Positions 3,288 through 37,342 of a stretch of DNA of 39,782 bases are shown here, piece after piece. The notes under the pieces are model-generated. The model searched no databases and had not been told where the DNA came from. It worked only from the letters and a program-made list of their open reading frames with translations. Source of the stretch: a plasmid; sequence record NZ_CP071287.1, one strand, 5' to 3'. Within the stretch, counting starts at the first letter, position 1. Every line of letters begins with the position of its first letter. The translations under genes and the position numbers were made by a program.

Positions 3288-4096
3288 GGTTCTGTTGCAA
3301 AGTTTTAAATCTACTATCAAATAAGGTAGAATAATAGAAAAAGATAGCAGGAGGAATGACGATGAATCATTTTAAAGGAAAGCAATTTCAGCAGGATGTG
3401 ATTATTGTAGCCGTGGGCTACTATCTTCGTTATAACCTTAGCTATCGTGAAGTTCAAGAAATCTTATATGATCGTGGCATTAACGTTTCTCATACGACGA
3501 TTTATCGTTGGGTGCAAGAATATGGCAAACGACTCTATCAAATTTGGAAAAAGAAAAATAAAAAATCCTTTTATTCATGGAAAATGGATGAAACGTACAT
3601 CAAAATTAAAGGAAAATGGCATTATTTGTATCGAGCCATCGATGCAGATGGTTTAACCTTGGATATTTGGTTACGTAAAAAACGGGACACACAAGCAGCC
3701 TATGCTTTTCTTAAGCGGTTAGTGAAGCAGTTTGATGAACCGAAGGTTGTAGTCACAGATAAAGCACCATCAATTGCTAGTGCCTTTAAGAAACTAAAAG
3801 AATACGGCTTTTATCAAGGGACAGAACATCGTACCATTAAATACCTGAATAATTTGATTGAACAAGACCATCGTCCAGTAAAGAGACGCAATAAATTCTA
3901 TCGAAGTTTACGCACTGCCTCTACCACGATTAAAGGCATGGAAGCCATCCGAGGATTATATAAGAAAACCCGAAAAGAAGGCACTCTCTTCGGGTTTTCG
4001 GTCTGTACTGAAATCAAGGTATTATTGGGAATCCCAGCTTAAATCATAGATACCGTAAGGGATTTTATTCTTTATTTAAAACTTTGCAACAGAACC
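3288..4096 (+). mobile_element. IS1216 (IS6 family) copy 1, 809 bp, terminal IRs GGTTCTGTTGCAAAGTTTTAAA
   Basis: The IR is present at both ends. The transposase ORF is near-identical to copies 2 and 3. The 8-bp flanks differ (tagttaag / ttcttttt), so there is no target-site duplication. Confidence 0.9.
3356..4042 (+). CDS. tnp: IS6-family DDE transposase (IS1216); the likely start is the internal ATG at 3362 (MNHFKGKQ…) behind AGGAGG
   Basis: MNHFKGKQFQQDVIIVAVGYYLRYNLSYREV… is the typical IS26/IS1216 transposase. Confidence 0.9.
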   Translation: MTMNHFKGKQFQQDVIIVAVGYYLRYNLSYREVQEILYDRGINVSHTTIYRWVQEYGKRLYQIWKKKNKKSFYSWKMDETYIKIKGKWHYLYRAIDADGLTLDIWLRKKRDTQAAYAFLKRLVKQFDEPKVVVTDKAPSIASAFKKLKEYGFYQGTEHRTIKYLNNLIEQDHRPVKRRNKFYRSLRTASTTIKGMEAIRGLYKKTRKEGTLFGFSVCTEIKVLLGIPA

Positions 4097-7082: not shown

Positions 7083-9125
7083 TTATCTGCTCAAACCGCC
7101 TGATTTATTCTGTTCACGGTGTTTTCTTTCCATGTCCCATTCAACTTCTTCTAACCCTTTTTTACGTTGGTTTTCATTATTATATAAAACACTAATTAAA
7201 ACTCCACTAAATAAACGATTCATATATTCTGCTGGGCTTGTATCTGCATAGGTAACTGATTGGTAGTTTTCCATATTTTTATCTCTATAAAATTCATTTT
7301 TATAGGACTGTTTATCATTCCTGTTTGTTGCTTCTTTTAGCAATTCAGGATCAATATTTTTATCTGCTTTAGCTTCTCCAATAAAGAGTTTTTTTGTTCC
7401 CTCAAATTTCAAAACTCTTGTCAGATGTTTATTATTTATATCCTCTAATCTTATTCTTCCAGCAAGATAAGAAAGTCCTTGATTATGTTCTTTTGTAGAA
7501 AATAGAATTGGCGGTTCTTTAACAATATTTTCTAATTCACTTTGAGTAAGTTTTTTGATTTTTGGGTTGAAATAGATTACTGCATTATATGTTTTTTCTT
7601 TTTCAACTAAACTTAGTTTATTTAATTCACTATCAGGGAAAATTGTTCCAAGAACAACAGAATATTGTTGTTCTACAATTTTTCTTACTTCTTCAATAGA
7701 ATTAATTTGTTTAAGACTACGTTGAATAATATCGAGTTCTTTTGAAAATTCTTCTGATTCATAATTTCTTAAAATTTTACCATGTGACATTGCAATATGT
7801 TCATAGTTATATCCTTGATAAGCTAAAACATTATTGATGTTATCAATATGATATTTTTCTTGTTTTGAAAGCATAGTTAAACTTGTAAATGGTCGCTTAG
7901 TTAAAGCAACTATTTGCCTATTTAAACTATCTGCTCTAATCATTGATAATCTATCGTCTAATTCTGCACCAGTAAATACTTTATTTTCACTCTCTGTTTC
8001 TCTGATTAATTGACGCTTTTCAGGCATAGAAAAAGCATTGCTATCTACGGTCGGATACATAGCTTTTATACTTCTATCTACAACTTTATCAATCAAACGA
8101 TTTGCATTATCAAGTGAAAATTCTTGTTGACTGACTTTGTTTAATTCTTCTGAAACATCTTTACCAACAATTTGCTTAATTAAAACACTATTTTTCCAGT
8201 TGAAAAGCATTTTATTTTTTTCTTCAAGGTGTTCTAAATCAATAAAGGTATGCAACTCTTTACTCAATTCAGCAATAACTTTCTTTTCGTTGAAAGAATA
8301 GAAATTTTTTAGTTGCTTAACTTTAAGTTCATTATTGATTTTTTCGTCAAGGCTTTCTAGTTCTGCTTTATGTTGTCTATTTTCTAAAACAAGTTCATTA
8401 AATTCAGCACGTTCATCACGATTTCCAGTCACTCCTACGTGTTGTGTTGCAATATCATTTATACCTTGTGCTTCTAGTGTTTTTTCACTAATTCTTTCAT
8501 CAATCTTTTTTTCTTGAAAAACAGAATTAACATGTTCTGCCCATGCTTTTCTCCATTCTTCAACTTTACCTACTTTATCCCAGTCAACAAGCCAAATTTT
8601 TCTACTTCTAGCATGACCATTAGCTGTATAAGTTTTGTTTCCATTTTCATCTAAAATATATTCTTTTTTAGCTTTTTGTCCCCAGCTTCCATCAGCATTA
8701 AACGGTCTATTTGTAAGCATAACATGAGCATGAGGGTTTTCATCATGATCTCTATGAATTGCAACATCTGCAACCATACCTTTATCAACAAATATTTTTT
8801 GAACATATTCGGTCAATAGTTCTTTTTGTTCATCTTCTGATAATTCAATAGGCAAAGCAACGTTAAATTCTTTTGCGTATCTTGAATTTACTTTACGGTC
8901 AATTGCTTCAACTTCGTTCCATAATTTTTGTCTATCTTTAGCCCATTCAGGTGCATTTTCAGGTAAAAGGATAAAACTTTCAGGCATGACACTACGATCA
9001 TAAAAATAAGTTTTATTTTCCATTTCGCTATAAAGTTTTTCGCCACTTCTATAACTTGCACTAGCTACTGCACTTCTTCCCTTACCAGCACTAATATTAC
9101 TAAAATTCATGTGAAATATTGCCAT
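7083..9125 (-). CDS. mobA: MobA/MobL-family (MOBQ) relaxase, 680 aa
   Basis: N-terminal catalytic Tyr motif (SAVASASYRSGE) and histidine triad (HRDHDENPHAHVML). Confidence 0.9.
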   Translation of the reverse strand: MAIFHMNFSNISAGKGRSAVASASYRSGEKLYSEMENKTYFYDRSVMPESFILLPENAPEWAKDRQKLWNEVEAIDRKVNSRYAKEFNVALPIELSEDEQKELLTEYVQKIFVDKGMVADVAIHRDHDENPHAHVMLTNRPFNADGSWGQKAKKEYILDENGNKTYTANGHARSRKIWLVDWDKVGKVEEWRKAWAEHVNSVFQEKKIDERISEKTLEAQGINDIATQHVGVTGNRDERAEFNELVLENRQHKAELESLDEKINNELKVKQLKNFYSFNEKKVIAELSKELHTFIDLEHLEEKNKMLFNWKNSVLIKQIVGKDVSEELNKVSQQEFSLDNANRLIDKVVDRSIKAMYPTVDSNAFSMPEKRQLIRETESENKVFTGAELDDRLSMIRADSLNRQIVALTKRPFTSLTMLSKQEKYHIDNINNVLAYQGYNYEHIAMSHGKILRNYESEEFSKELDIIQRSLKQINSIEEVRKIVEQQYSVVLGTIFPDSELNKLSLVEKEKTYNAVIYFNPKIKKLTQSELENIVKEPPILFSTKEHNQGLSYLAGRIRLEDINNKHLTRVLKFEGTKKLFIGEAKADKNIDPELLKEATNRNDKQSYKNEFYRDKNMENYQSVTYADTSPAEYMNRLFSGVLISVLYNNENQRKKGLEEVEWDMERKHREQNKSGGLSR

Positions 9126-9149: not shown

Positions 9150-9245
9150 TTTTTTGTTGTTGCCAAAGGCAACTTCTGATACCATTTTTTTGAGCAATTA
9201 CACCACCCAATTTTGGAGTGGTGTGTAAGTGCGCATTGTCCTCGC
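9150..9245 (+). promoter_or_regulatory. oriT: oriT. IR1 is gttgccaaaggcaac (9159..9173). IR2 is acaccac-N11-gtggtgt (9199..9223). The putative nic core GTAAGTGCG|CATTG follows, with the nick predicted near 9232/9233.
   Basis: The architecture matches the R1162/RSF1010 oriT (inverted repeat then TAAGTGCG|CCCT), immediately upstream of mobA. Confidence 0.75.
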
Positions 9246-9385: not shown

Positions 9386-9688
9386 ATGGCATTATCTAGT
9401 TTAGAAAAACAACAAGAAAAATTAAATAAGCTAAACGAAAAAATTAAAAACGAAAAGAAAAAAATTGATAACAAAGTAGGTCATGAAATTATCAAATTGT
9501 CTAATCTTGATTATTCAAAATTGACTACTGATAAAATCAAAGAATTAACTAAAGAATTTTCAGAATTTTTAAAAGGAAAAAATAGTTCTGATGAAACTGA
9601 AAAATCTACTGATTCTGTTTCTGATGAAAACATTAATTCAGTTCATGAAAAAACTGAAAATAATTATAAAAATGAAAACAATTTTTAA
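9386..9688 (+). CDS. hypothetical lysine-rich coiled-coil protein (100 aa) with an acidic Ser/Asn-rich C-terminus
   Basis: Strong promoter and RBS. No recognisable catalytic motifs. Confidence 0.55.
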   Translation: MALSSLEKQQEKLNKLNEKIKNEKKKIDNKVGHEIIKLSNLDYSKLTTDKIKELTKEFSEFLKGKNSSDETEKSTDSVSDENINSVHEKTENNYKNENNF

Positions 9689-9700
9689 GGTTGATTGCTT

Positions 9701-9967
9701 ATGAGTAATCAACTTGAAAATTTAATTTCTAAAAAAGAAGAAATTCAAAAAAAAATTGAACGTGAAAATTTAATTTTAAAAAAATCAAAATATCTTGAAA
9801 GTACAAAAGAAAGAAAAGCAAGAACTCGAAAATTAATACAAAAGGGTGCTTTACTAGATAAGTATTTTGAAATTGAAAATCTTTCAATTGATGAAACAGA
9901 AGATTTTTTAAAAATTTTCTCAAATTATATAAAAGAAAATAAACCTGATAAATATAAAAAAAACTAA
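9701..9967 (+). CDS. hypothetical coiled-coil protein (about 89 aa) containing …KERKARTRKLIQKGALL…; possible relaxosome accessory or DUF3847-like
   Basis: The RBS aaggttga precedes the ATG at 9701, and the gene is translationally coupled to the upstream gene. The family assignment is from memory only. Confidence 0.5.
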   Translation: MSNQLENLISKKEEIQKKIERENLILKKSKYLESTKERKARTRKLIQKGALLDKYFEIENLSIDETEDFLKIFSNYIKENKPDKYKKN

Positions 9968-10000
9968 CTACTTTATTTTTTGTAGTTAGTTTTTTTATAT
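9961..10000 (+). terminator. rho-independent terminator aactaactac-N-gtagttagttttttt
   Basis: Perfect 10-bp stem followed by a T-run, directly after the stop codon. Confidence 0.75.
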
Positions 10001-10019
10001 TAAATAAATTTACTAAAAT

Positions 10020-10269
10020 CACGTTTCATTTTATTTTGTTCTTTTACTATTTTTAGATATTCTATACATTCGTCTAATTCTAAATTATACCAGCTTCCAA
10101 ATGCTATTATATCTCCTATAATTATTTCATCTTCATTTTCGATAAAACTAACTTGTACTGATACTTCTTTTGTTGAAAGTCCTGTTTTAATTTCTAAGTT
10201 ATATCTATCAAAATCATATTTATTATTTTGAGTATCTTTTATTGTTTCAACGCTACTAACTTTTATTAT
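10020..10269 (-). other. open frame of about 83 codons from an ATA codon at 10269 to the stop at 10020, with no ATG/GTG/TTG start; about 93 codons if counted from the TAA at 10299, as in the finding. The SD AAAGGAG lies 8 nt upstream and overlaps the stop of the 10283..10600 gene.
   Basis: Translation reads IIKVSSVETIKDTQNNKYDFDRYNLEIKTGLSTKEVSVQVSFIENEDEIIIGDIIAFGSWYNLELDECIEYLKIVKEQNKMKRDFSKFI*. It is not in the ORF track because it lacks a canonical start. Confidence 0.35.
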
Positions 10270-10282
10270 TTTAAATTCTCCT

Positions 10283-10600
10283 TTATAAAAATAAATTATT
10301 ATTTTTTATATCCCATTCAAACCATTCAGCAAAATCATGCTTCATGCCATTAATAGAATATTTTTGTTGTTCTTTTTCTTCTTCTTCGTCATAAGGGTCT
10401 AACGCTGTCGGCTTGTCTTGCGGTCTTGCATATACTCCAACCCATTCATTATTATCGCCATACTCAAAACTACTATCAATTAAAAACCCTTTTTTTGCGA
10501 GTTCTTCTCTTACCTGTGCTTTGATATATTGTAATTCTGCTGTACCGTCAAACCAGTCATTTTTTAAATCTTCTAATTTGATTTTTTTGTTGTTTGTCAT
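10283..10600 (-). CDS. hypothetical acidic, Trp-rich protein (105 aa), paralogue A of the 35448..35813 gene
   Basis: About 55% identity with paralogue B over the full length (…QYIKAQVREEL…GFLIDSSFE…WVGVYARPQDKPTALDPYDEE…QYSINGMKHDFAEWFEWDIKN). Confidence 0.7.
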   Translation of the reverse strand: MTNNKKIKLEDLKNDWFDGTAELQYIKAQVREELAKKGFLIDSSFEYGDNNEWVGVYARPQDKPTALDPYDEEEEKEQQKYSINGMKHDFAEWFEWDIKNNNLFL

Positions 10601-10900
10601 AATGTTTTTCTCTTTTCTTTTTTGTTTTTAAAATTCATTTTTTTGTTATGTTTGGAAGTGAAGTTGTTAGCTGGAATTTAAAAAAATATTGAATTTCATA
10701 ATATTATGTGTCCTTTCTTTTTTGAGTGATCCATTTTTTCGCCTTGCTTGTTTTTGGTTGTTGTGATTGAGGGGGAACAGAATTTCAAAGCAGAAACAAG
10801 GGCGAGCTTGCGAGTATATTTACCCTTGTTTCTGATTTGGGGTTCTGTTAACATGATTGAATAACGACTATTAAGCAAGGCAATGGATATTTCAAAGAAA
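10601..10900 (-). promoter_or_regulatory. conserved structured leader of paralogue A: hairpin 10781..10822 (11-bp stem, 20-nt loop), 12-codon uORF 10696..10734 (MDHSKKKGHIIL) and a conserved GAAGTGAAG box
   Basis: Aligns with the leader of paralogue B (35814..36030). The hairpin stem sequences differ but remain complementary (compensatory changes). The loop core GCAAGCUCGCCC is conserved. Confidence 0.6.
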
Positions 10901-10961
10901 GATTTATAAGATTATGAAATTCATGCCCTTATTTTTTTTAATTACAGATATTTTTTATAAA

Positions 10962-11005
10962 AAAAAAGCAATTACTAAACTTTTTTAGTAGTTGCTTTTT
11001 TCCAT
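10962..11005. terminator. bidirectional terminator aaaaaagcaattactaaacttttttagtagttgctttttt downstream of repB
   Basis: 9-bp stem flanked by an A-tract and a T-tract. Confidence 0.65.
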
Positions 11006-11077
11006 GCTTTTATATCTTTTATTTTGCAGACCTACTCAAAGTTGTCGCTTTTAGGAGGTCGTCCATTTTTTCAGTCA

Positions 11078-12232
11078 TTAATCTATATCCTGCCTTTTTA
11101 CCGTAGGTAGGTATTGTTCAATTGCCTTTTTAAGATACTTTGCAATGTTCCCTTTTGAATAAGGTTCTTGCTTCTCACGAACGTATGAGAGATGCTTTTT
11201 GACCCCCTCAAGTCCTCGTAATGTTTTGAGTTCGTCATACTTTGGATAAACATTTTTTTGCAAGCCAGCCATGATTGCTGGGTCGGTCATTTCATAAGGG
11301 GATAAAAGGAAATTTTCCAGCAATAACTTTGTATATTTGCTTTTCATTGCTTTTGCATATAACCTATCTTCATTTGCTTCTTTTTCAGCTTTCGCTTCTT
11401 GATTAGTTTTATCTTCTAGCTTATAGCTGTTATCATCTGCTCGACGTTTTTTCGTAATATGAAAGACGATAGAATCAATCGAACGCCCTGCTTTGATTTT
11501 TTCATAAGTCACGTTGAAAGAAGTATGAGCGTTAATTTCTTTCAAAGAGTTTTTTAAAATATACCTATCCCAGTCATTATACTTATAATATTCATTGACG
11601 GTATCAGTCATAAGTCGCATTTCTTTAACTTTAATTGACGGATTACGGTAGGCTTCTACCTGTTTGGCTCTTCGTCCGCCCTTGTTGCTGTAATGCTCGT
11701 ATTGGTTGTAATTCATGGATAACCACCGATACAAGATAATGCTGTACTTGCTATTGAGTTCTGCAAGATCTGATAAAGCGTGTTGGGTAAAATTCTTTTT
11801 GAGATTGATTAAATAAGGCATAATTTCACGATGAAATTCAATTTTTACTTCGTCGTTATAATCCGTCCACTCCACGTAAGGAATAGGCACAATGCTTTTA
11901 AATTTAAAACCCTTGCCTGCTTCTTCTTTGATTTGAAAAAAGGCTTGTTTTTGCATTTTCTCAACCGCTTGTTTAAAGCGACTATGCTTGTCATTGTCGG
12001 ATACCTTAAAAAAGGCAAATAATTCTGCTTTTGAAAGATAGACGGTATTGTCTTTGGGTGGTTCTTCGGTATTGATACAAGATACCGCCAACTCAAACAT
12101 TTTTAAGGGCGTTTTATCCATTTTAGCGATTGATGTTATCAAGCTGTTATGCTCCACCACTTTTCTTTTTGACAATTCATTCAAGGTTAGTACCTGCTTT
12201 TGGTTTTCTTTTTTTTCTGGTATAATAGACAT
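11078..12232 (-). CDS. repB: theta-replication initiator RepB (Rep_3 family, lactococcal pCI305/pWV02 type). The likely start is MSIIPEKK at 12232 behind AAAGGAG.
   Basis: N-terminal Rep_3-like region (…NSLITSIAKMDKTPLKMFELAVSCI…) and 3.5 tandem 22-bp iterons plus an AT-rich tract directly upstream. Confidence 0.75.
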   Translation of the reverse strand: MSIIPEKKENQKQVLTLNELSKRKVVEHNSLITSIAKMDKTPLKMFELAVSCINTEEPPKDNTVYLSKAELFAFFKVSDNDKHSRFKQAVEKMQKQAFFQIKEEAGKGFKFKSIVPIPYVEWTDYNDEVKIEFHREIMPYLINLKKNFTQHALSDLAELNSKYSIILYRWLSMNYNQYEHYSNKGGRRAKQVEAYRNPSIKVKEMRLMTDTVNEYYKYNDWDRYILKNSLKEINAHTSFNVTYEKIKAGRSIDSIVFHITKKRRADDNSYKLEDKTNQEAKAEKEANEDRLYAKAMKSKYTKLLLENFLLSPYEMTDPAIMAGLQKNVYPKYDELKTLRGLEGVKKHLSYVREKQEPYSKGNIAKYLKKAIEQYLPTVKRQDID

Positions 12233-12345
12233 AGAAATACTCCTTTGTGAGTGTTTAAGAATAAGCATAGAGAAAGTTTTCTTAGCGGGAAATTTCTCTA
12301 TGCTATTATTATACCATATTATGCCGAAACACTCTAGTTTTTTTT

Positions 12346-12420
12346 CGGCATATACACAGTTTTTTTTCGGCATATACACAGTTTTTTTTCGGCATATACA
12401 CAGTTTTTTTTCGGTATATA
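12346..12420. repeat. iterons: 22-bp direct repeat cggcatatacacagtttttttt, 3.5 tandem copies
   Basis: Three perfect copies plus a half copy (cggtatata), adjacent to the repB start. Confidence 0.85.
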
Positions 12421-30664: not shown

Positions 30665-31473
30665 GGTTCTGTTGCAAAGTTTTAAATCTACTATCAAATA
30701 AGGTAGAATAATAGAAAAAGATAGCAGGAGGAATGACGACGAATCATTTTAAAGGAAAGCAATTTCAGCAGGATGTGATTATTGTAGCCGTGGGCTACTA
30801 TCTTCGTTATAACCTTAGCTATCGTGAAGTTCAAGAAATCTTATATGATCGTGGCATTAACGTTTCTCATACGACGATTTATCGTTGGGTGCAAGAATAT
30901 GGCAAACTACTCTATCAAATTTGGAAAAAGAAAAATAAAAAATCCTTTTATTCCTGGAAAATGGATGAAACGTACATCAAAATTAAAGGAAAATGGCATT
31001 ATTTGTATCGAGCCATCGATGCAGATGGTTTAACCTTGGATATTTGGTTACGTAAAAAACGGGACACACAAGCAGCCTATGCTTTTCTTAAGCGGTTAGT
31101 GAAGCAGTTTGATGAACCGAAGGTTGTAGTCACAGATAAATCCCCCTCTATTACAAGTGCCTTTAAGAAACTAAAAGAATACGGCTTTTATCAAGGGACA
31201 GAACATCGTACCATTAAATACCTGAATAATTTGATTGAACAAGACCATCGTCCAGTAAAGAGACGCAATAAATTCTATCGAAGTTTACGCACTGCCTCAC
31301 CCACGATTAAAGGCATGGAAGCCATCCGAGGATTATATAAGAAAACCCGAAAAGAAGGCACTCTCTTCGGGTTTTCGGTCTGTACTGAAATCAAGGTATT
31401 ATTGGGAATCCCAGATTAAATCATAGATACCGTAAGGGATTTTATTCTTTATTTAAAACTTTGCAACAGAACC
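30665..31473 (+). mobile_element. IS1216 copy 2, 809 bp
   Basis: Terminal IRs are present. The 8 bp immediately to the right (31474..31481) is CACTAGAC. Confidence 0.9.
30733..31419 (+). CDS. tnp: IS1216 transposase
   Basis: Near-identical to 3356..4042. Confidence 0.9.
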   Translation: MTTNHFKGKQFQQDVIIVAVGYYLRYNLSYREVQEILYDRGINVSHTTIYRWVQEYGKLLYQIWKKKNKKSFYSWKMDETYIKIKGKWHYLYRAIDADGLTLDIWLRKKRDTQAAYAFLKRLVKQFDEPKVVVTDKSPSITSAFKKLKEYGFYQGTEHRTIKYLNNLIEQDHRPVKRRNKFYRSLRTASPTIKGMEAIRGLYKKTRKEGTLFGFSVCTEIKVLLGIPD

Positions 31474-32897: not shown

Positions 32898-33706
32898 GGT
32901 TCTGTTGCAAAGTTTTAAATCTACTATCAAATAAGGTAGAATAATAGAAAAAGATAGCAGGAGGAATGACGATGAATCATTTTAAAGGAAAGCAATTTCA
33001 GCAGGATGTGATTATTGTAGCCGTGGGCTACTATCTTCGTTATAACCTTAGCTATCGTGAAGTTCAAGAAATCTTATATGATCGTGGCATTAACGTTTCT
33101 CATACGACGATTTATCGTTGGGTGCAAGAATATGGCAAACTACTCTATCAAATTTGGAAAAAGAAAAATAAAAAATCCTTTTATTCATGGAAAATGGATG
33201 AAACGTACATCAAAATTAAAGGAAAATGGCATTATTTGTATCGAGCCATCGATGCAGATGGTTTAACCTTGGATATTTGGTTACGTAAAAAACGGGACAC
33301 ACAAGCAGCCTATGCTTTTCTTAAGCGGTTAGTGAAGCAGTTTGATGAACCGAAGGTTGTAGTCACAGATAAAGCCCCCTCTATTACAAGTGCCTTTAAG
33401 AAACTAAAAGAATACGGCTTTTATCAAGGGACAGAACATCGTACCATTAAATACCTGAATAATTTGATTGAACAAGACCATCGTCCAGTAAAGAGACGCA
33501 ATAAATTCTATCGAAGTTTACGCACTGCCTCACCCACGATTAAAGGTATGGAAGCCATCCGAGGATTATATAAGAAAACCCGAAAAGAAGGCACTCTCTT
33601 CGGGTTTTCGGTCTGTACTGAAATCAAGGTATTATTGGGAATCCCAGCTTAAATCATAGATACCGTAAGGGATTTTATTCTTTATTTAAAACTTTGCAAC
33701 AGAACC
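32898..33706 (+). mobile_element. IS1216 copy 3, 809 bp
   Basis: Terminal IRs are present. The 8 bp immediately to the left (32890..32897) is CACTAGAC, identical to the right flank of copy 2. Confidence 0.9.
32966..33652 (+). CDS. tnp: IS1216 transposase
   Basis: Near-identical to 3356..4042. Confidence 0.9.
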   Translation: MTMNHFKGKQFQQDVIIVAVGYYLRYNLSYREVQEILYDRGINVSHTTIYRWVQEYGKLLYQIWKKKNKKSFYSWKMDETYIKIKGKWHYLYRAIDADGLTLDIWLRKKRDTQAAYAFLKRLVKQFDEPKVVVTDKAPSITSAFKKLKEYGFYQGTEHRTIKYLNNLIEQDHRPVKRRNKFYRSLRTASPTIKGMEAIRGLYKKTRKEGTLFGFSVCTEIKVLLGIPA

Positions 33707-34653: not shown

Positions 34654-35151
34654 TTAACTCAATAAGTTTTTTCTTTCATATACATGAAAATAGTAGTTAT
34701 ACGGATTTTTATCATTCTTTATCCCTTTTTGGGCAAATACCTCATTCCATTCCTCATAATTCACTTCTGGAAAAAAAGTATCTCCTTCGAATTCATGATG
34801 TATTTTTGTGATGTACATTTTCTCAACATAAGGGAAAAACAAATTATAAATCTGTTCTCCTCCGAAAATAAAAATTTCTTCTTCGTTTTTACATAACTCA
34901 AAAACATCTTCTATTGAATGAACAATTTCACAACCATTAAAGGTAAACCCCTTATCTCTCGTCAGAATAATATTTCTTCTGTCAGGTAAGGCTCTTCCGA
35001 TTGATTCAAGGTTCTTCCTACCTAATATTATCGGATGTCCCTTTGTAGTATTTTTAACATATTCCCAGTCCTTGGGAATCCTCCAAGGAATGTCATTCTC
35101 TTTGCCAATCACTCTATTCTTATCCATCGCAGCAATCAAAGAAACTTTCAT
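34654..35151 (-). CDS. dfrG: trimethoprim-resistant dihydrofolate reductase DfrG, 165 aa
   Basis: DHFR fold motifs (…LIAAMDKNRVIGKENDIPWR…). Length and sequence match DfrG. Confidence 0.85.
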   Translation of the reverse strand: MKVSLIAAMDKNRVIGKENDIPWRIPKDWEYVKNTTKGHPIILGRKNLESIGRALPDRRNIILTRDKGFTFNGCEIVHSIEDVFELCKNEEEIFIFGGEQIYNLFFPYVEKMYITKIHHEFEGDTFFPEVNYEEWNEVFAQKGIKNDKNPYNYYFHVYERKNLLS

Positions 35152-35447: not shown

Positions 35448-35813
35448 TTACATTTCTTTAATTTTCAAATTTTTTATTTCCCACTCAAACCATTCGCTAA
35501 AATCTTGTTTAAAGCCGTTAATAGAATATTGCTCTTGTTCTTCTGCTTCTTTATCGTTTTGAGGGTCTAAGTAGGTCGGTTTATCTTTTGGTCTTGCGTA
35601 TACACCTATCCATGTTTTAAAATCGCCCTCAAAACTGCTATCTATGATAAAGCCTTGCTCTTTTAGCTCTTCTCTTACTTGAGCTTTTAGATATTGCTGT
35701 TCTTGTGTTCCATAAAACCCATTTTCTGTAAAATCTTCTAATTGTAATTTTTTTGTTTTTTCCATTTTCTTTTCCTCTTTTCTTTTTTTGATTTTTAGTT
35801 TTTTGACAACCAT
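35448..35813 (-). CDS. hypothetical acidic, Trp-rich protein, paralogue B; the likely start is the second Met (MEKTKKLQLEDF…, about 35765), giving 105 aa
   Basis: Homologous over the full length to 10283..10600 (…QYLKAQVREELKEQGFIIDSSFE…WIGVYARPKDKPTYLDPQ…QYSINGFKQDFSEWFEWEIKN). Confidence 0.7.
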   Translation of the reverse strand: MVVKKLKIKKRKEEKKMEKTKKLQLEDFTENGFYGTQEQQYLKAQVREELKEQGFIIDSSFEGDFKTWIGVYARPKDKPTYLDPQNDKEAEEQEQYSINGFKQDFSEWFEWEIKNLKIKEM

Positions 35814-36030
35814 TTTTGTTAGGCGTTTGAGGAAGTGAAGCTGTTTTCCTCATGTTTTAAAAGCTAGAAATAAATTACAGTGTACGCTCCTTTCTTTTTT
35901 CGTTTTGTTGGTTCATTTTCGCCAGTGTGTTCGTGTCGTTTGCTGTGACGAGAACGCAACATAGACACAAAGAAAACACAAGGGCGAGCTTGCTCGTTTA
36001 TATACCCTTGTGTTTTCGACTGGATATGTT
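35814..36030 (-). promoter_or_regulatory. conserved structured leader of paralogue B: hairpin 35972..36017 (13-bp stem, 20-nt loop), 13-codon uORF 35875..35916 (MNQQNEKRKERTL) and a GAAGTGAAG box
   Basis: See the leader of paralogue A. The stem covaries, the loop core is conserved, and the uORF is conserved in position. Confidence 0.6.
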
Positions 36031-36151
36031 AAGGTAACAAACAGTAAATGGCACGTTACAGACTGCAAAATGTACCAACTGAAAAAAGAAAGAATACAGT
36101 TGTGTGCTTTATTTCTCGATCAGCTTTTAAAAAATGAGGAAATGTTTTTAT

Positions 36152-36200
36152 AAAAAAAGAGTAGTTACCGTTTTTTGGTAACTACTCTTTTACTTTTTTA
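36152..36200. terminator. bidirectional terminator agagtagttacc-gtttttt-ggtaactactct with a T-run, downstream of the zeta gene
   Basis: 12-bp perfect stem. Confidence 0.75.
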
Positions 36201-36204
36201 AGGT

Positions 36205-37068
36205 TTAAATCCCTGGAAGTTTAGGTGTTTTGGGTATTGGTGGTGTAGGTGGCTGCAAGCTTTCCATTTTTTGTTGAATTGCTTTAAATTCAGGGGTTTC
36301 TTGGTGTTGATTTTGAACCATTTTTTGCTCTATTCTCTCCAAAGTCGGTTGAATTTCTTTCCCTGATACTTTACGATTTAATTCTCTTTCTAAGGTCTCT
36401 TTCGGACTAATGGAAGGCGTTTCTAAGCTTGAATAGAGTTTCACTCCTTCTCTATTGTAAAGCCTTATATCGCTAAATAAGCCCGTTTTATGAAGGGTTT
36501 CTAAATTGGTCGGTAAGTTTTTGACAACAATATCATGCGCTTGTTTTGGTGTTGCCCTGGCTGTCATTGGATCATCTGCATACATAGTTTCATACCGTTC
36601 AATTGTTCCTAAATATGAGTTGATTTTAGGTACTGCCATGACATACATTTTTGTTTCATAATCTTTGGCTTGAAGCATTGTTGCGGTTTGAATAGGAACG
36701 TCTGTTGTTCGTCCTGTACCTTCAATCACTAAATTATACCCTTTATCTCTCAAACGGCTTATGATCGCTTCTGTCATGCGATTAGAATAAGGGGTAACGT
36801 ATTTTACTACGTCTTTTTCATAAAGTTTCACTAGTTCATCAAAATTAGGGTGCTGTTGTTTGAACGTATCATTATCAATGATAACAACATTTCCTTGTGT
36901 CTCTTCGGAAATTGCCGATCGCAAACTAGTTTTACCTGATCCTGGTTGCCCACCAAGTAAAAAAGCGGTTGGCGATTCAACCGCTAGTCTATTTTTAGTT
37001 AGTCGTTCAACATTCTTTTCTAAACGATCTTCAAATTGCTTTTCGGTGAAGTCAGTAATATTCGCCAT
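36205..37068 (-). CDS. zeta: zeta toxin (UNAG kinase) of the omega-epsilon-zeta system, 287 aa
   Basis: Walker A motif GGQPGSGKT. Full-length match to Inc18 zeta. Confidence 0.95.
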
Positions 37069-37069
37069 G

Positions 37070-37342
37070 TTAAGCCACTTTCTCTTTTGTCAAAATTTGT
37101 TTTGAATATTGATTCATTGACCGCCAATACTCATGAATAGCTTGTAATTCTTCAAATGGTTGTTGAAATAAATCAACTTCTTGTGCCACTTCTAATTGAT
37201 TTAAAAGATTCACTTCTAGTAAACGAGTATTTTTAGTATCTAGTTCATGGTTCAAAACATAGTTTAATACTCGATTATAAACGCTTGCCGATAATTCGTT
37301 AATGATCTCTATTTCAAATGTTTTTTCATACGTAACTGCCAT
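37070..37342 (-). CDS. epsilon: epsilon antitoxin, 90 aa
   Basis: [35 protein letters not shown]…. Confidence 0.95.

Follow-up and report, generated by a model that had tools for sequence, protein, structure and literature searches.

A portable transferred-strand hairpin as a candidate single-strand-DNA promoter of Gram-positive conjugative plasmids

The window analyzed here, a stretch of 39,782 nucleotides (nt) from a plasmid (sequence record NZ_CP071287.1), contains two paralogous genes, A and B, which encode acidic, tryptophan-rich proteins of 105 amino acids (aa) and which each lie behind a similar leader, referred to below as element A and element B (Table 1). The window is a mosaic lactococcal plasmid in which locus A shares 100% identity with pK214 and 97.6% with pMRC01. 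A preliminary description, made without database searches, had reported the paralogy, the shared leaders of about 230 nt, and an apical hairpin whose stem differs between the two loci yet stays complementary. Both apical hairpins can be read directly from the sequence, and alignment of the two ~230-nt leaders recovers conserved blocks. Paralogy and length were likewise borne out, with 63/100 identities between the two proteins (E = 9e-46), which is above the ~55% first claimed, as was their acidic and Trp-rich character (isoelectric point of 4.6 and 3 to 4 Trp residues in each). The start at 35813 initially assigned to gene B did not hold up, as it would yield a protein of 121 aa, lacks a Shine-Dalgarno sequence, and is unused in homologues.

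Locus A lies close to an origin of transfer (oriT). In the RSF1010/pIP501 family of relaxases, the strand that is cleaved carries an inverted repeat on the 5′ side of the nick. The nick-region core AAGTGCGC follows such a repeat on the + strand of the window, upstream of a relaxase gene with MobA/MobL and NES_C domains (7083-9125, − strand). [quoted passage not shown] A GpC nick has been stated for the RSF1010/pIP501-type relaxase family (PMC4981023). The position of oriT at about 9230, the placement of locus A in the leading region with the transferred strand as gene template, and the presence of ssb and primase-like (Toprim/DUF3991) genes nearby had all been proposed earlier, and all were found.

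The apical hairpin noted earlier proved to be merely the tip of an imperfect hairpin of about 230 nt. Folded as single-stranded DNA (ssDNA), the + strand of element A reaches −46.98 kcal/mol (z = −8.06) versus −41.28 kcal/mol (z = −5.45) for the opposite strand, while the corresponding values for element B are −54.1 kcal/mol (z = −5.53) and −44.6 kcal/mol (z = −3.67). A sliding 240-nt scan of the + strand across the whole 39.8-kb window returned A and B as the two most stable folds, at −44.5 and −49.6 against a window mean of −19.7 (standard deviation, 5.8); the elements are AT-rich, at 34 to 40% GC. The window has two exact occurrences of the 16-mer GCAAGCTCGCCCTTGT (10796-10811 and 35978-35993), where 0.10 would be expected. 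Homology-independent mining of the whole window for hairpins yielded no other convincing candidate for a single-strand promoter, and the regions upstream of the ssb and primase genes, together with the gap at 16.5 to 17.9 kb, contained no convincing hairpin promoter candidate.

We examined covariation in a set of 31 distinct relatives from Enterococcus, Lactococcus, Vagococcus, and Clostridia. At least eight strongly different apical stem sequences occur among the relatives, every one of them complementary. Across the 31 sequences, 93.5% of pair cells are standard-paired, compared to 41 to 51% when the partners are slid; compensatory changes are found in 20 of 29 pairs, and the covariation score is 0.454 against about 0.10, values that were attained in 0 of 500 shuffles. 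The three outer helices all covary, including the helix beyond the proposed −10 element described below. MAFFT alignments, which are not fitted to structure, gave compensation in 19/29 pairs, and in 29/57 over the full-length hairpin. The compensatory covariation that had been proposed, which is weak on two loci alone, therefore holds on the 31 relatives. A covariance model built in + strand orientation scores 82.8 bits for element A at 10745-10878(+) and 17.9 bits on the minus strand, and 127.5 bits for element B at 35927-36062(+) and about 18 on the opposite strand. With filters off, it found no copies in the window beyond A and B, while it identified one copy each in pAM373 and p116-2 and additional diverged copies in the loci of some relatives. 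A pattern scan covering one genome per species placed further copies in Enterococcus, Vagococcus, Streptococcus, Lapidilactobacillus, Thermoclostridium, Vallitaleaceae, and other Clostridia. Database matches were restricted to Firmicutes except for one Salmonella record, and the element is nearly absent from phage records (1 match), although the protein domain of the 105-aa family occurs in phages. Replicons carry one to four copies, and some relatives' loci have two, as in L066 (second copy at 618-756) and L071 (5617-5752 and 6462-6597).

The strand antisense to the gene folds better in 18 of 18 representatives under DNA parameters, and under RNA parameters it does so in 17 of 18, the remaining one being a tie. 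Pair cells read on the antisense strand include 70 G-T and 15 A-C combinations. The unanimous fold preference and this 70:15 ratio argue that structure is selected on the transferred strand and not on the mRNA. The sense RNA also beats its shuffles, with z values of −4.9 and −2.6. A sigma-70 scan and reading by eye revealed no conserved promoter able to make an antisense-strand RNA spanning both arms, which makes ssDNA the most plausible molecule to form the hairpin.

Promoter-like hexamers recur at a fixed place in this structure (Table 1). On the transferred strand, the 3′ arm carries a −35-like hexamer immediately 3′ of an invariant CCC, and this hexamer is paired in the folds of all family members. 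A −10-like hexamer, defined by A as its second base and T as its sixth, lies 16 to 19 nt from the −35 in 18/21 distinct transferred-strand arms versus 4/21 mirror arms; the mirror position of the −10 of element A on the gene strand reads TCCCCC. Complementarity between the arms ends at, or just 3′ of, the −10-like hexamer, and the folds of A, the B type, and L011 leave the hexamer unpaired over its last five bases, along with the 5 to 8 nt that follow. As modeled, this arrangement is the geometry that a hairpin promoter would need, with the 3′ arm as the non-template strand and the 5′ arm as the template. A simple sigma-70 scan found nothing at locus B and, at locus A, sites no more numerous than chance would give; the gene strand has no conserved promoter.

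Other parts of the leader were also considered. The preliminary description had listed a 12-codon upstream open reading frame (uORF), which is indeed present at 10734..10696. The peptides it and its counterparts would encode (MDHSKKKGHIIL, MNQQNEKRKERTL, MNHLKEKRKEQDM, and one of 30+ aa in pAM373) are conserved in neither sequence nor length, and its start region is paired in the lower stem, where the block GGCGAAAATG(A/G)A is the complement of GTACATTTTGC on the opposite arm. For these two reasons we discount a functional leader peptide, and the uORF is probably not a functional unit. Comparison with homologues thus retained the hairpin, with its covariation, and not the uORF peptide. The conserved box that follows the hairpin base, CAGCTTCACTTCC...AAAAATGGTTGT, is restricted to an Enterococcus/Lactococcus subfamily. 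On the transferred strand the loop reads GGG-CGAGCTTGCTCG-(A/T-rich)-CCC, with a possible mini-hairpin within it. In L066, the second copy has a different loop (GGGCGAACAAAGTGAGTTCATCTTGACCC) although its stems and its −10 region, TATGtTAAGGT, are retained, from which it follows that the "invariant" loop motif is not absolutely required. We rejected a reading of the element as a secondary oriT: GCAAGCTCGCCCTTG is loosely like the MOBQ nick core TAAGTGCGCCCTTA, but it lies partly in the stem, the real core is 1.3 to 2.2 kb away within the same loci, and the element occurs with MOBC relaxases too. Rfam searches with gathering and E-value thresholds gave no match to the leader better than E = 0.3 in 10500-11100, the only match being ctRNA_pND324 at repB, and there is neither a terminator between hairpin and gene nor a terminator/antiterminator pair, in agreement with the earlier statement that no T-box, riboswitch, or terminator is present.

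Table 1. Positions of the features discussed in the text, with promoter-like hexamers of related loci
Feature	Position	Strand	Basis or remark
Element A, long imperfect hairpin, proposed single-strand-DNA promoter	10693..10920	+	Fold, covariance model
Element B, long imperfect hairpin of the same kind	35892..36090	+	Fold, covariance model
Apical stem-loop of A, 11-bp stem AGAAACAAGGG/CCCTTGTTTCT, 20-nt loop	10792..10833	.	Sequence; stem covaries
Apical stem-loop of B, GAAAACACAAGGG/CCCTTGTGTTTTC	35972-36017	.	Sequence
A, −35-like TTGTTT, 3′ half of apical stem	10826..10831	+	3/6 match to TTGACA
A, −10-like TAACAT, preceded by TGt, 17 nt after −35-like	10849..10854	+	Opposite GGGGG, internal loop
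B, −35-like TTGTGT	36008-36013	+	16-nt spacer ending TATGt
B, −10-like TAAGGT	36030-36035	+	Internal loop
pAM373, −35-like TTGTTT, spacer 16, (TATGg) TACTGT			
L013, −35-like TTTACA, spacer 17, (GTGc) TAGCAT			
L091, −35-like TTGTGT, spacer 16, TATGAT			
L011, −35-like TTGACA, spacer 16, TATACT			Near consensus
L086, −35-like TTGACA, spacer 18, TATTTT			Near consensus
12-codon uORF (MDHSKKKGHIIL) inside lower stem	10696..10734	−	Sequence; region pairs with other arm
Conserved box AACAACTTCACTTCC (GAAGTGAAGYTGTT on +), between hairpin base and ribosome-binding site	10653..10667	−	
Gene A, 105-aa acidic Trp-rich protein, PHROG 5149 domain	10283..10600	−	Translation and homology
Second cassette gene, 89 aa, apparent ATA start 8 nt after AAAGGAG	10000..10269	−	Sequence reading
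Terminator-like hairpin and T-run closing cassette A (actaactac...gtagttagt + T8)	9955..9992	−	By eye, unscored
Terminator-like hairpin between repB and element A	10962..11001	.	Sequence
oriT: inverted repeat 9200-9226, then nick-region core AAGTGCGC 9227-9234	9200..9239	+	Sequence
Gene B, 105-aa paralogue of gene A	35448..35765	−	Alignment to gene A
Terminator-like hairpin after zeta, upstream of element B	36155..36191	.	
Dihydrofolate reductase (DHFR) resistance gene	34654-35151		
IS6-family (DDE_Tnp_IS240) 228-aa transposases	30733-31419, 32966-33652, 3356-4042		

The genes that follow the element vary among relatives. In pAM373, the module is followed by a gene of 60 aa and then by genes for an 88-aa homologue of the W-rich 105-aa proteins, PcfK/AcrIIA9, PcfJ, and SSB; in p116-2, an Inc18 plasmid, it lies ahead of a DnaJ-domain protein, and other cargo found behind it includes RadC and HicA. 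Judging from these gene orders, the leader is a portable module and not specific to the 105-aa gene. By mechanical calls, an open reading frame (ORF) of at least 50 aa on the same strand begins no more than 350 nt downstream in all 28 loci with sufficient flank, and by inspection the first plausible cargo gene begins 135 to 285 nt past the hairpin. With MOBQ relaxases the order is element, cargo, oriT, relaxase, a synteny found in 11 loci besides locus A, and the relaxase gene starts 1.4 to 2.3 kb downstream of the element. The MOBQ loci checked, locus A and six others, have the nick core on the antisense strand, 1.3 to 2.2 kb past the element, and it is in these seven that leading-region placement with the transferred strand as template was seen. 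With MOBC (TraX) relaxases the order is relaxase, element, cargo (five loci, some with just 34% relaxase identity). The orientation of the relaxase gene matches in 16 loci. In pAM373 (L001, 800-941), the TraW-like gene is separated from the TraX-like relaxase gene by an inverted repeat of ~140 bp, whose perfect arms measure 25 and 18 nt; it matches the pAD1/pAM373 oriT as reported, and the hairpin element is about 2 kb beyond it, after the relaxase gene.

At locus A, the cassette runs from the hairpin through the 105-aa gene and an 89-aa gene to a terminator-like hairpin. The 89-aa gene was missed by an ORF list restricted to ATG, GTG, and TTG starts; its homologues (MRGINNHQKYDFDLY...) come after the first cargo gene in Inc18 loci, and its product had one weak LSM-like match in Pfam (E = 0.0021). 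On the other side, the terminator-like hairpin between repB and element A would insulate the cassette from upstream transcription. Two small ORFs (100 and 90 aa) at 9386-9967(+) lie between oriT and cassette A, the second with a sub-threshold match to DUF3847. They cannot be read from the transferred strand because they are coded on that strand, and they may be relaxosome accessory genes. The replicon is of the theta type, with a Rep_3 gene carrying L_lactis_RepB_C (11078-12379, − strand) and a counter-transcribed RNA (ctRNA) antisense to its leader (Rfam ctRNA_pND324, 77.8 bits, 12230-12316, + strand), which is ordinary copy-number control of a lactococcal theta replicon.

Locus B lies on an Inc18 fragment, downstream of epsilon/zeta (36205-37342) and near IS6-family transposases and the DHFR gene. 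Native Inc18 loci have the B-type element about 1.8 kb before oriT, and element B and gene B in the window are displaced Inc18 cargo and not part of the host plasmid's own leading region. B-type sequence is found in 749 plasmid records, mostly of Enterococcus. The B-type element is also 100% identical in at least 13 genomes (L003, L010, L021, L022, L029, L033, L036, L055, and others), which comprise unrelated Clostridia, Bacteroides-labelled assemblies, and metagenome-assembled genomes, and a different ORF (MSMVNADSVQLF...) follows these identical copies. Their identity suggests recent horizontal spread of an Inc18-derived segment.

Clustering at 90% identity divides the W-rich family to which proteins A and B belong into about 99 clusters, whose members come from Enterococcus, Lactococcus, Carnobacterium, Listeria, Streptococcus, and one Lactococcus phage. 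Both window proteins match PHROG 5149, for which no function is annotated (E = 6e-23 to 3e-32), and comparisons with Pfam and the PDB gave no relative; the family is unassigned, as first described. An AlphaFold model of the 105-aa protein is a confident, small alpha+beta fold (predicted local distance difference test score of 89), and the phage protein, LW81 gp037, is a relative in both structure and sequence. No similarity in sequence or fold was found to characterized members of the anti-restriction and anti-CRISPR families ArdA, Ocr, and Acr. It is only the gene context that suggests an anti-defense or establishment role for the 105-aa protein. In phages and prophages, the W-rich domain forms the C-terminal half of proteins of ~160 to 190 aa (P0028, which is LW81 gp037, P0055, P0057, and P0090). 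Some of these carry the NCBI name "Phi-29-like late activator," which is unverified and probably derives from the fused N-terminal part.

Of the two mechanisms that the preliminary description had offered, attenuation through the uORF is not supported, while a single-strand promoter of the Frpo type is favored by the transferred-strand hairpin, its strand-specific fold, the hexamers, and the terminators. We consider it fairly probable, from sequence and predicted folds, that the leader is a Gram-positive counterpart of the Frpo-type single-strand-DNA promoters, a reading we prefer because the cargo is varied and always beside a relaxase gene, and because the gene strand has no conserved double-strand promoter. 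Under this proposal, the nicked strand (at locus A, the + strand of the window from about 9233) would enter the recipient, and its segment 10693-10920 would fold into the ~230-nt imperfect hairpin. The 3′ arm would be the non-template strand of the promoter, with the −35-like hexamer in the fully paired apical stem and the −10-like TAnnnT 16 to 18 nt farther from the loop, often preceded by TG and placed at or near an internal loop like a pre-opened bubble. RNA polymerase of the host, which in Firmicutes would carry sigma-A, would bind there, copy the 5′ arm outward, leave the hairpin at its base, and continue into the cargo genes (10600→10000), and cargo expression would begin ahead of the complementary strand. 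In double-stranded DNA, the hairpin would be lost, the hexamers would face away from the genes, and the terminator-flanked cassette would be promoterless, so that expression would be transient. The same transcript could prime synthesis of the complementary strand, or the hairpin could delay it, and the module may thereby also time that synthesis. Recognition by RNA polymerase, a start at about 10760-10770(−), transience, and a role of the cargo in plasmid establishment are all steps that we infer.

Several observations weigh against this proposal. The window hexamers are weak, matching the consensus at 7/12 positions in A (TTGTTT/TAACAT) and 6/12 in B (TTGTGT/TAAGGT), and both pairs fall under the threshold of a simple sigma-70 scan. 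In L005, L008, L024, and L064, the −10 is paired in the minimum-energy fold, with a loop of 3 to 5 nt after it. The covariance-model alignment is biased toward structure, and the sequences share phylogeny. Locus B in the window has no oriT downstream, and on MOBC plasmids such as pAM373 the element is downstream of oriT and relaxase with transcription directed away from oriT, an arrangement that differs from classic leading-region geometry. Finally, a plain promoter model accounts neither for the box ahead of the ribosome-binding site (RBS) nor for the invariant loop motif CGAGCTTGCTCG.

That motif, which suggests a sequence-specific factor, is one of several points in favor of a different function, in which the hairpin would be a single-strand initiation site or origin that recruits RNA polymerase, or a plasmid or host primase, for priming only, or else would be a replication roadblock, and would not serve as an mRNA promoter. 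This possibility shares all the structural and strand evidence with the promoter reading. Gram-positive single-strand origins are folded ssDNA that RNA polymerase recognizes as a promoter (PMC4595007), and Frpo itself also primes DNA synthesis and blocks double-strand conversion (PMC12672017; bioRxiv 10.64898/2026.01.09.698686). SSB and the Toprim primase-like gene are nearby, and on MOBC plasmids the element would sit near the 3′ end of the transferred strand, a good site for a primer. We nonetheless find priming alone unlikely, given that in all copies examined the predicted transcription leaves the loop and enters an RBS-bearing gene 135 to 285 nt on, that the cassette has terminators on both sides and no other promoter, and that the replicon is a theta-type Rep_3 and not a rolling-circle one and the CS-6 motif of ssoA is absent. 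The two readings are compatible with each other.

We consider each of the remaining explanations far less probable. The hairpin and uORF could be the cis-regulatory 5′ untranslated region of an mRNA begun upstream, and in line with this the sense RNA folds better than shuffles, an ATG follows GGCGA(A)AA in all close copies, and a 9/12 promoter-like site, TTGAAA-17-AATAGT, is present at 10895..10867(−). However, that site is at chance level (3.9 expected) and missing at locus B, structure is selected on the opposite strand, the uORF peptides and lengths are not conserved and its ATG region is paired in the lower stem, and unrelated genes share a leader that has no terminator/antiterminator pair and no Rfam match; such a leader is therefore very improbable. 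Slightly more doubtful still is an ordinary double-strand promoter on the + strand that fires away from the gene and yields an RNA of ~150 nt ending at the upstream terminator, which looks bidirectional. It would account for the −35/−10-like hexamers on the + strand and for the + strand terminator-like hairpins with T-runs 100 to 150 nt on at both loci, but it would leave unexplained the covariation between the arms, where helices 1 and 2 join transcribed and untranscribed segments, and the conserved apical hairpin, which would lie upstream of the start; we see neither a conserved product nor a conserved target, and the upstream context varies among loci. The least credible explanation, in our view, is a mobile or recombinational palindrome, such as a repeat resembling a miniature inverted-repeat transposable element, an attC-like site of single-strand recombination, or a cruciform bound by a plasmid protein. 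A long module found in many genomes ahead of differing cassettes, with identical copies in unrelated Clostridia, would fit such an origin, but replicons carry just one to four copies in fixed orientation relative to genes and relaxase, the copies show deep divergence with compensation in place of near-identity, no integrase or transposase is consistently linked, and the identical copies ride on an Inc18-derived segment.

To our knowledge, single-strand promoters have been shown solely in enterobacterial F and IncI plasmids. Early gene expression of Gram-positive conjugative plasmids in new hosts is little understood, and the pLS20 family, the one Gram-positive system examined closely, works by other means. 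We put at slightly better than even the chance that the module represents the first single-strand-DNA promoter family of Gram-positive conjugative elements, a portable hairpin of ~230 nt that ranges from Lactococcus and Enterococcus to Clostridia and acts as an early-expression switch for establishment and anti-defense cassettes. If so, it would be a plug-in switch for AcrIIA9/PcfK, SSB, RadC, and W-rich cassettes, carried on Inc18 and pheromone-responsive plasmids (pAM373), which are major carriers of antibiotic resistance. The module would give direct access to the early expression of genes in recipients and would single out whatever genes follow it, the 105-aa family among them, as candidate establishment or anti-defense functions, and its sequence/structure model could be used in Firmicutes to annotate leading regions and the polarity of transfer. 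In the predicted folds, the −10 bubble that appears pre-opened may also serve as a testable idea for how RNA polymerase uses folded ssDNA.

In the literature that we searched, we found neither the element described nor a single-strand promoter reported for any Gram-positive conjugative plasmid. The known hairpin promoters include Frpo1, Frpo2, and ssp2 of F, ssi1 to ssi3 of ColIb-P9, and classes 1 to 3 of pESBL, and they comprise several classes without mutual sequence relation (PMC9849209, PMC12672017, PMC13478746). Like these Frpo/ssi elements, the element is a long imperfect hairpin on the transferred strand and, at locus A and six other MOBQ loci, lies ahead of leading-region genes templated by that strand; its −35 and −10 boxes would be reconstituted in the stem, and by analogy activity would be expected only before double-strand conversion. 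Frpo2 of F folds likewise into a GC-rich hairpin of ~320 nt, the boxes of which were not confidently placed, so the likeness is one of overall shape. The F leading region gave chance matches only in blastn (best E = 0.049) and at most 15.4 bits with the covariance model. Unlike F Frpo, the element is AT-rich and ~230 nt long, and unlike Frpo/ssi elements in general it has an invariant loop motif, MOBQ/MOBC rather than MOBF/MOBP relaxases, Firmicutes hosts, and a −10 in the TG-extended style, and it is known here from sequence and predicted folds. Samuel et al. looked at a Streptococcus island and found no similarity to Frpo there (PMC11541004).

EGeRS1 of the pLS20 family, which is about 600 nt long and branched and in whose fold its authors found no promoter (PMC8708921), is likewise a long, structured, conserved sequence before variable establishment/anti-defense operons of Gram-positive conjugative plasmids. 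It differs from the element described here in that the transferred strand is the non-template strand at EGeRS1 and the template at locus A and the MOBQ loci, and in that the element is a single hairpin with promoter-like hexamers.

A parallel may also be drawn with single-strand origins. These make a short primer without a coupled gene, whereas the element is tied to oriT, relaxase, and cargo. The hallmarks of ssoA are CS-6 (TAGCGT/A) in a terminal loop and an RSB; TAGCGT and TAGCGA, the two forms of the CS-6 consensus, are absent from both strands of 10693-10920 and 35892-36090. Single-strand origins belong to rolling-circle replicons, while the element described here is on a theta replicon, and Inc18 and pheromone-responsive plasmids are theta replicons as well. 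On ICEBs1 and on Gram-positive rolling-circle plasmids, such origins consist of folded ssDNA that RNA polymerase recognizes as a promoter (PMC4595007). Like ssoA, ssoU, ssoT, ssoW, and sso1, the element would be an orientation-specific fold of ssDNA on the displaced or transferred strand in Firmicutes, and on this analogy we regard the single-strand origins recognized by RNA polymerase as its nearest analogues within that phylum.

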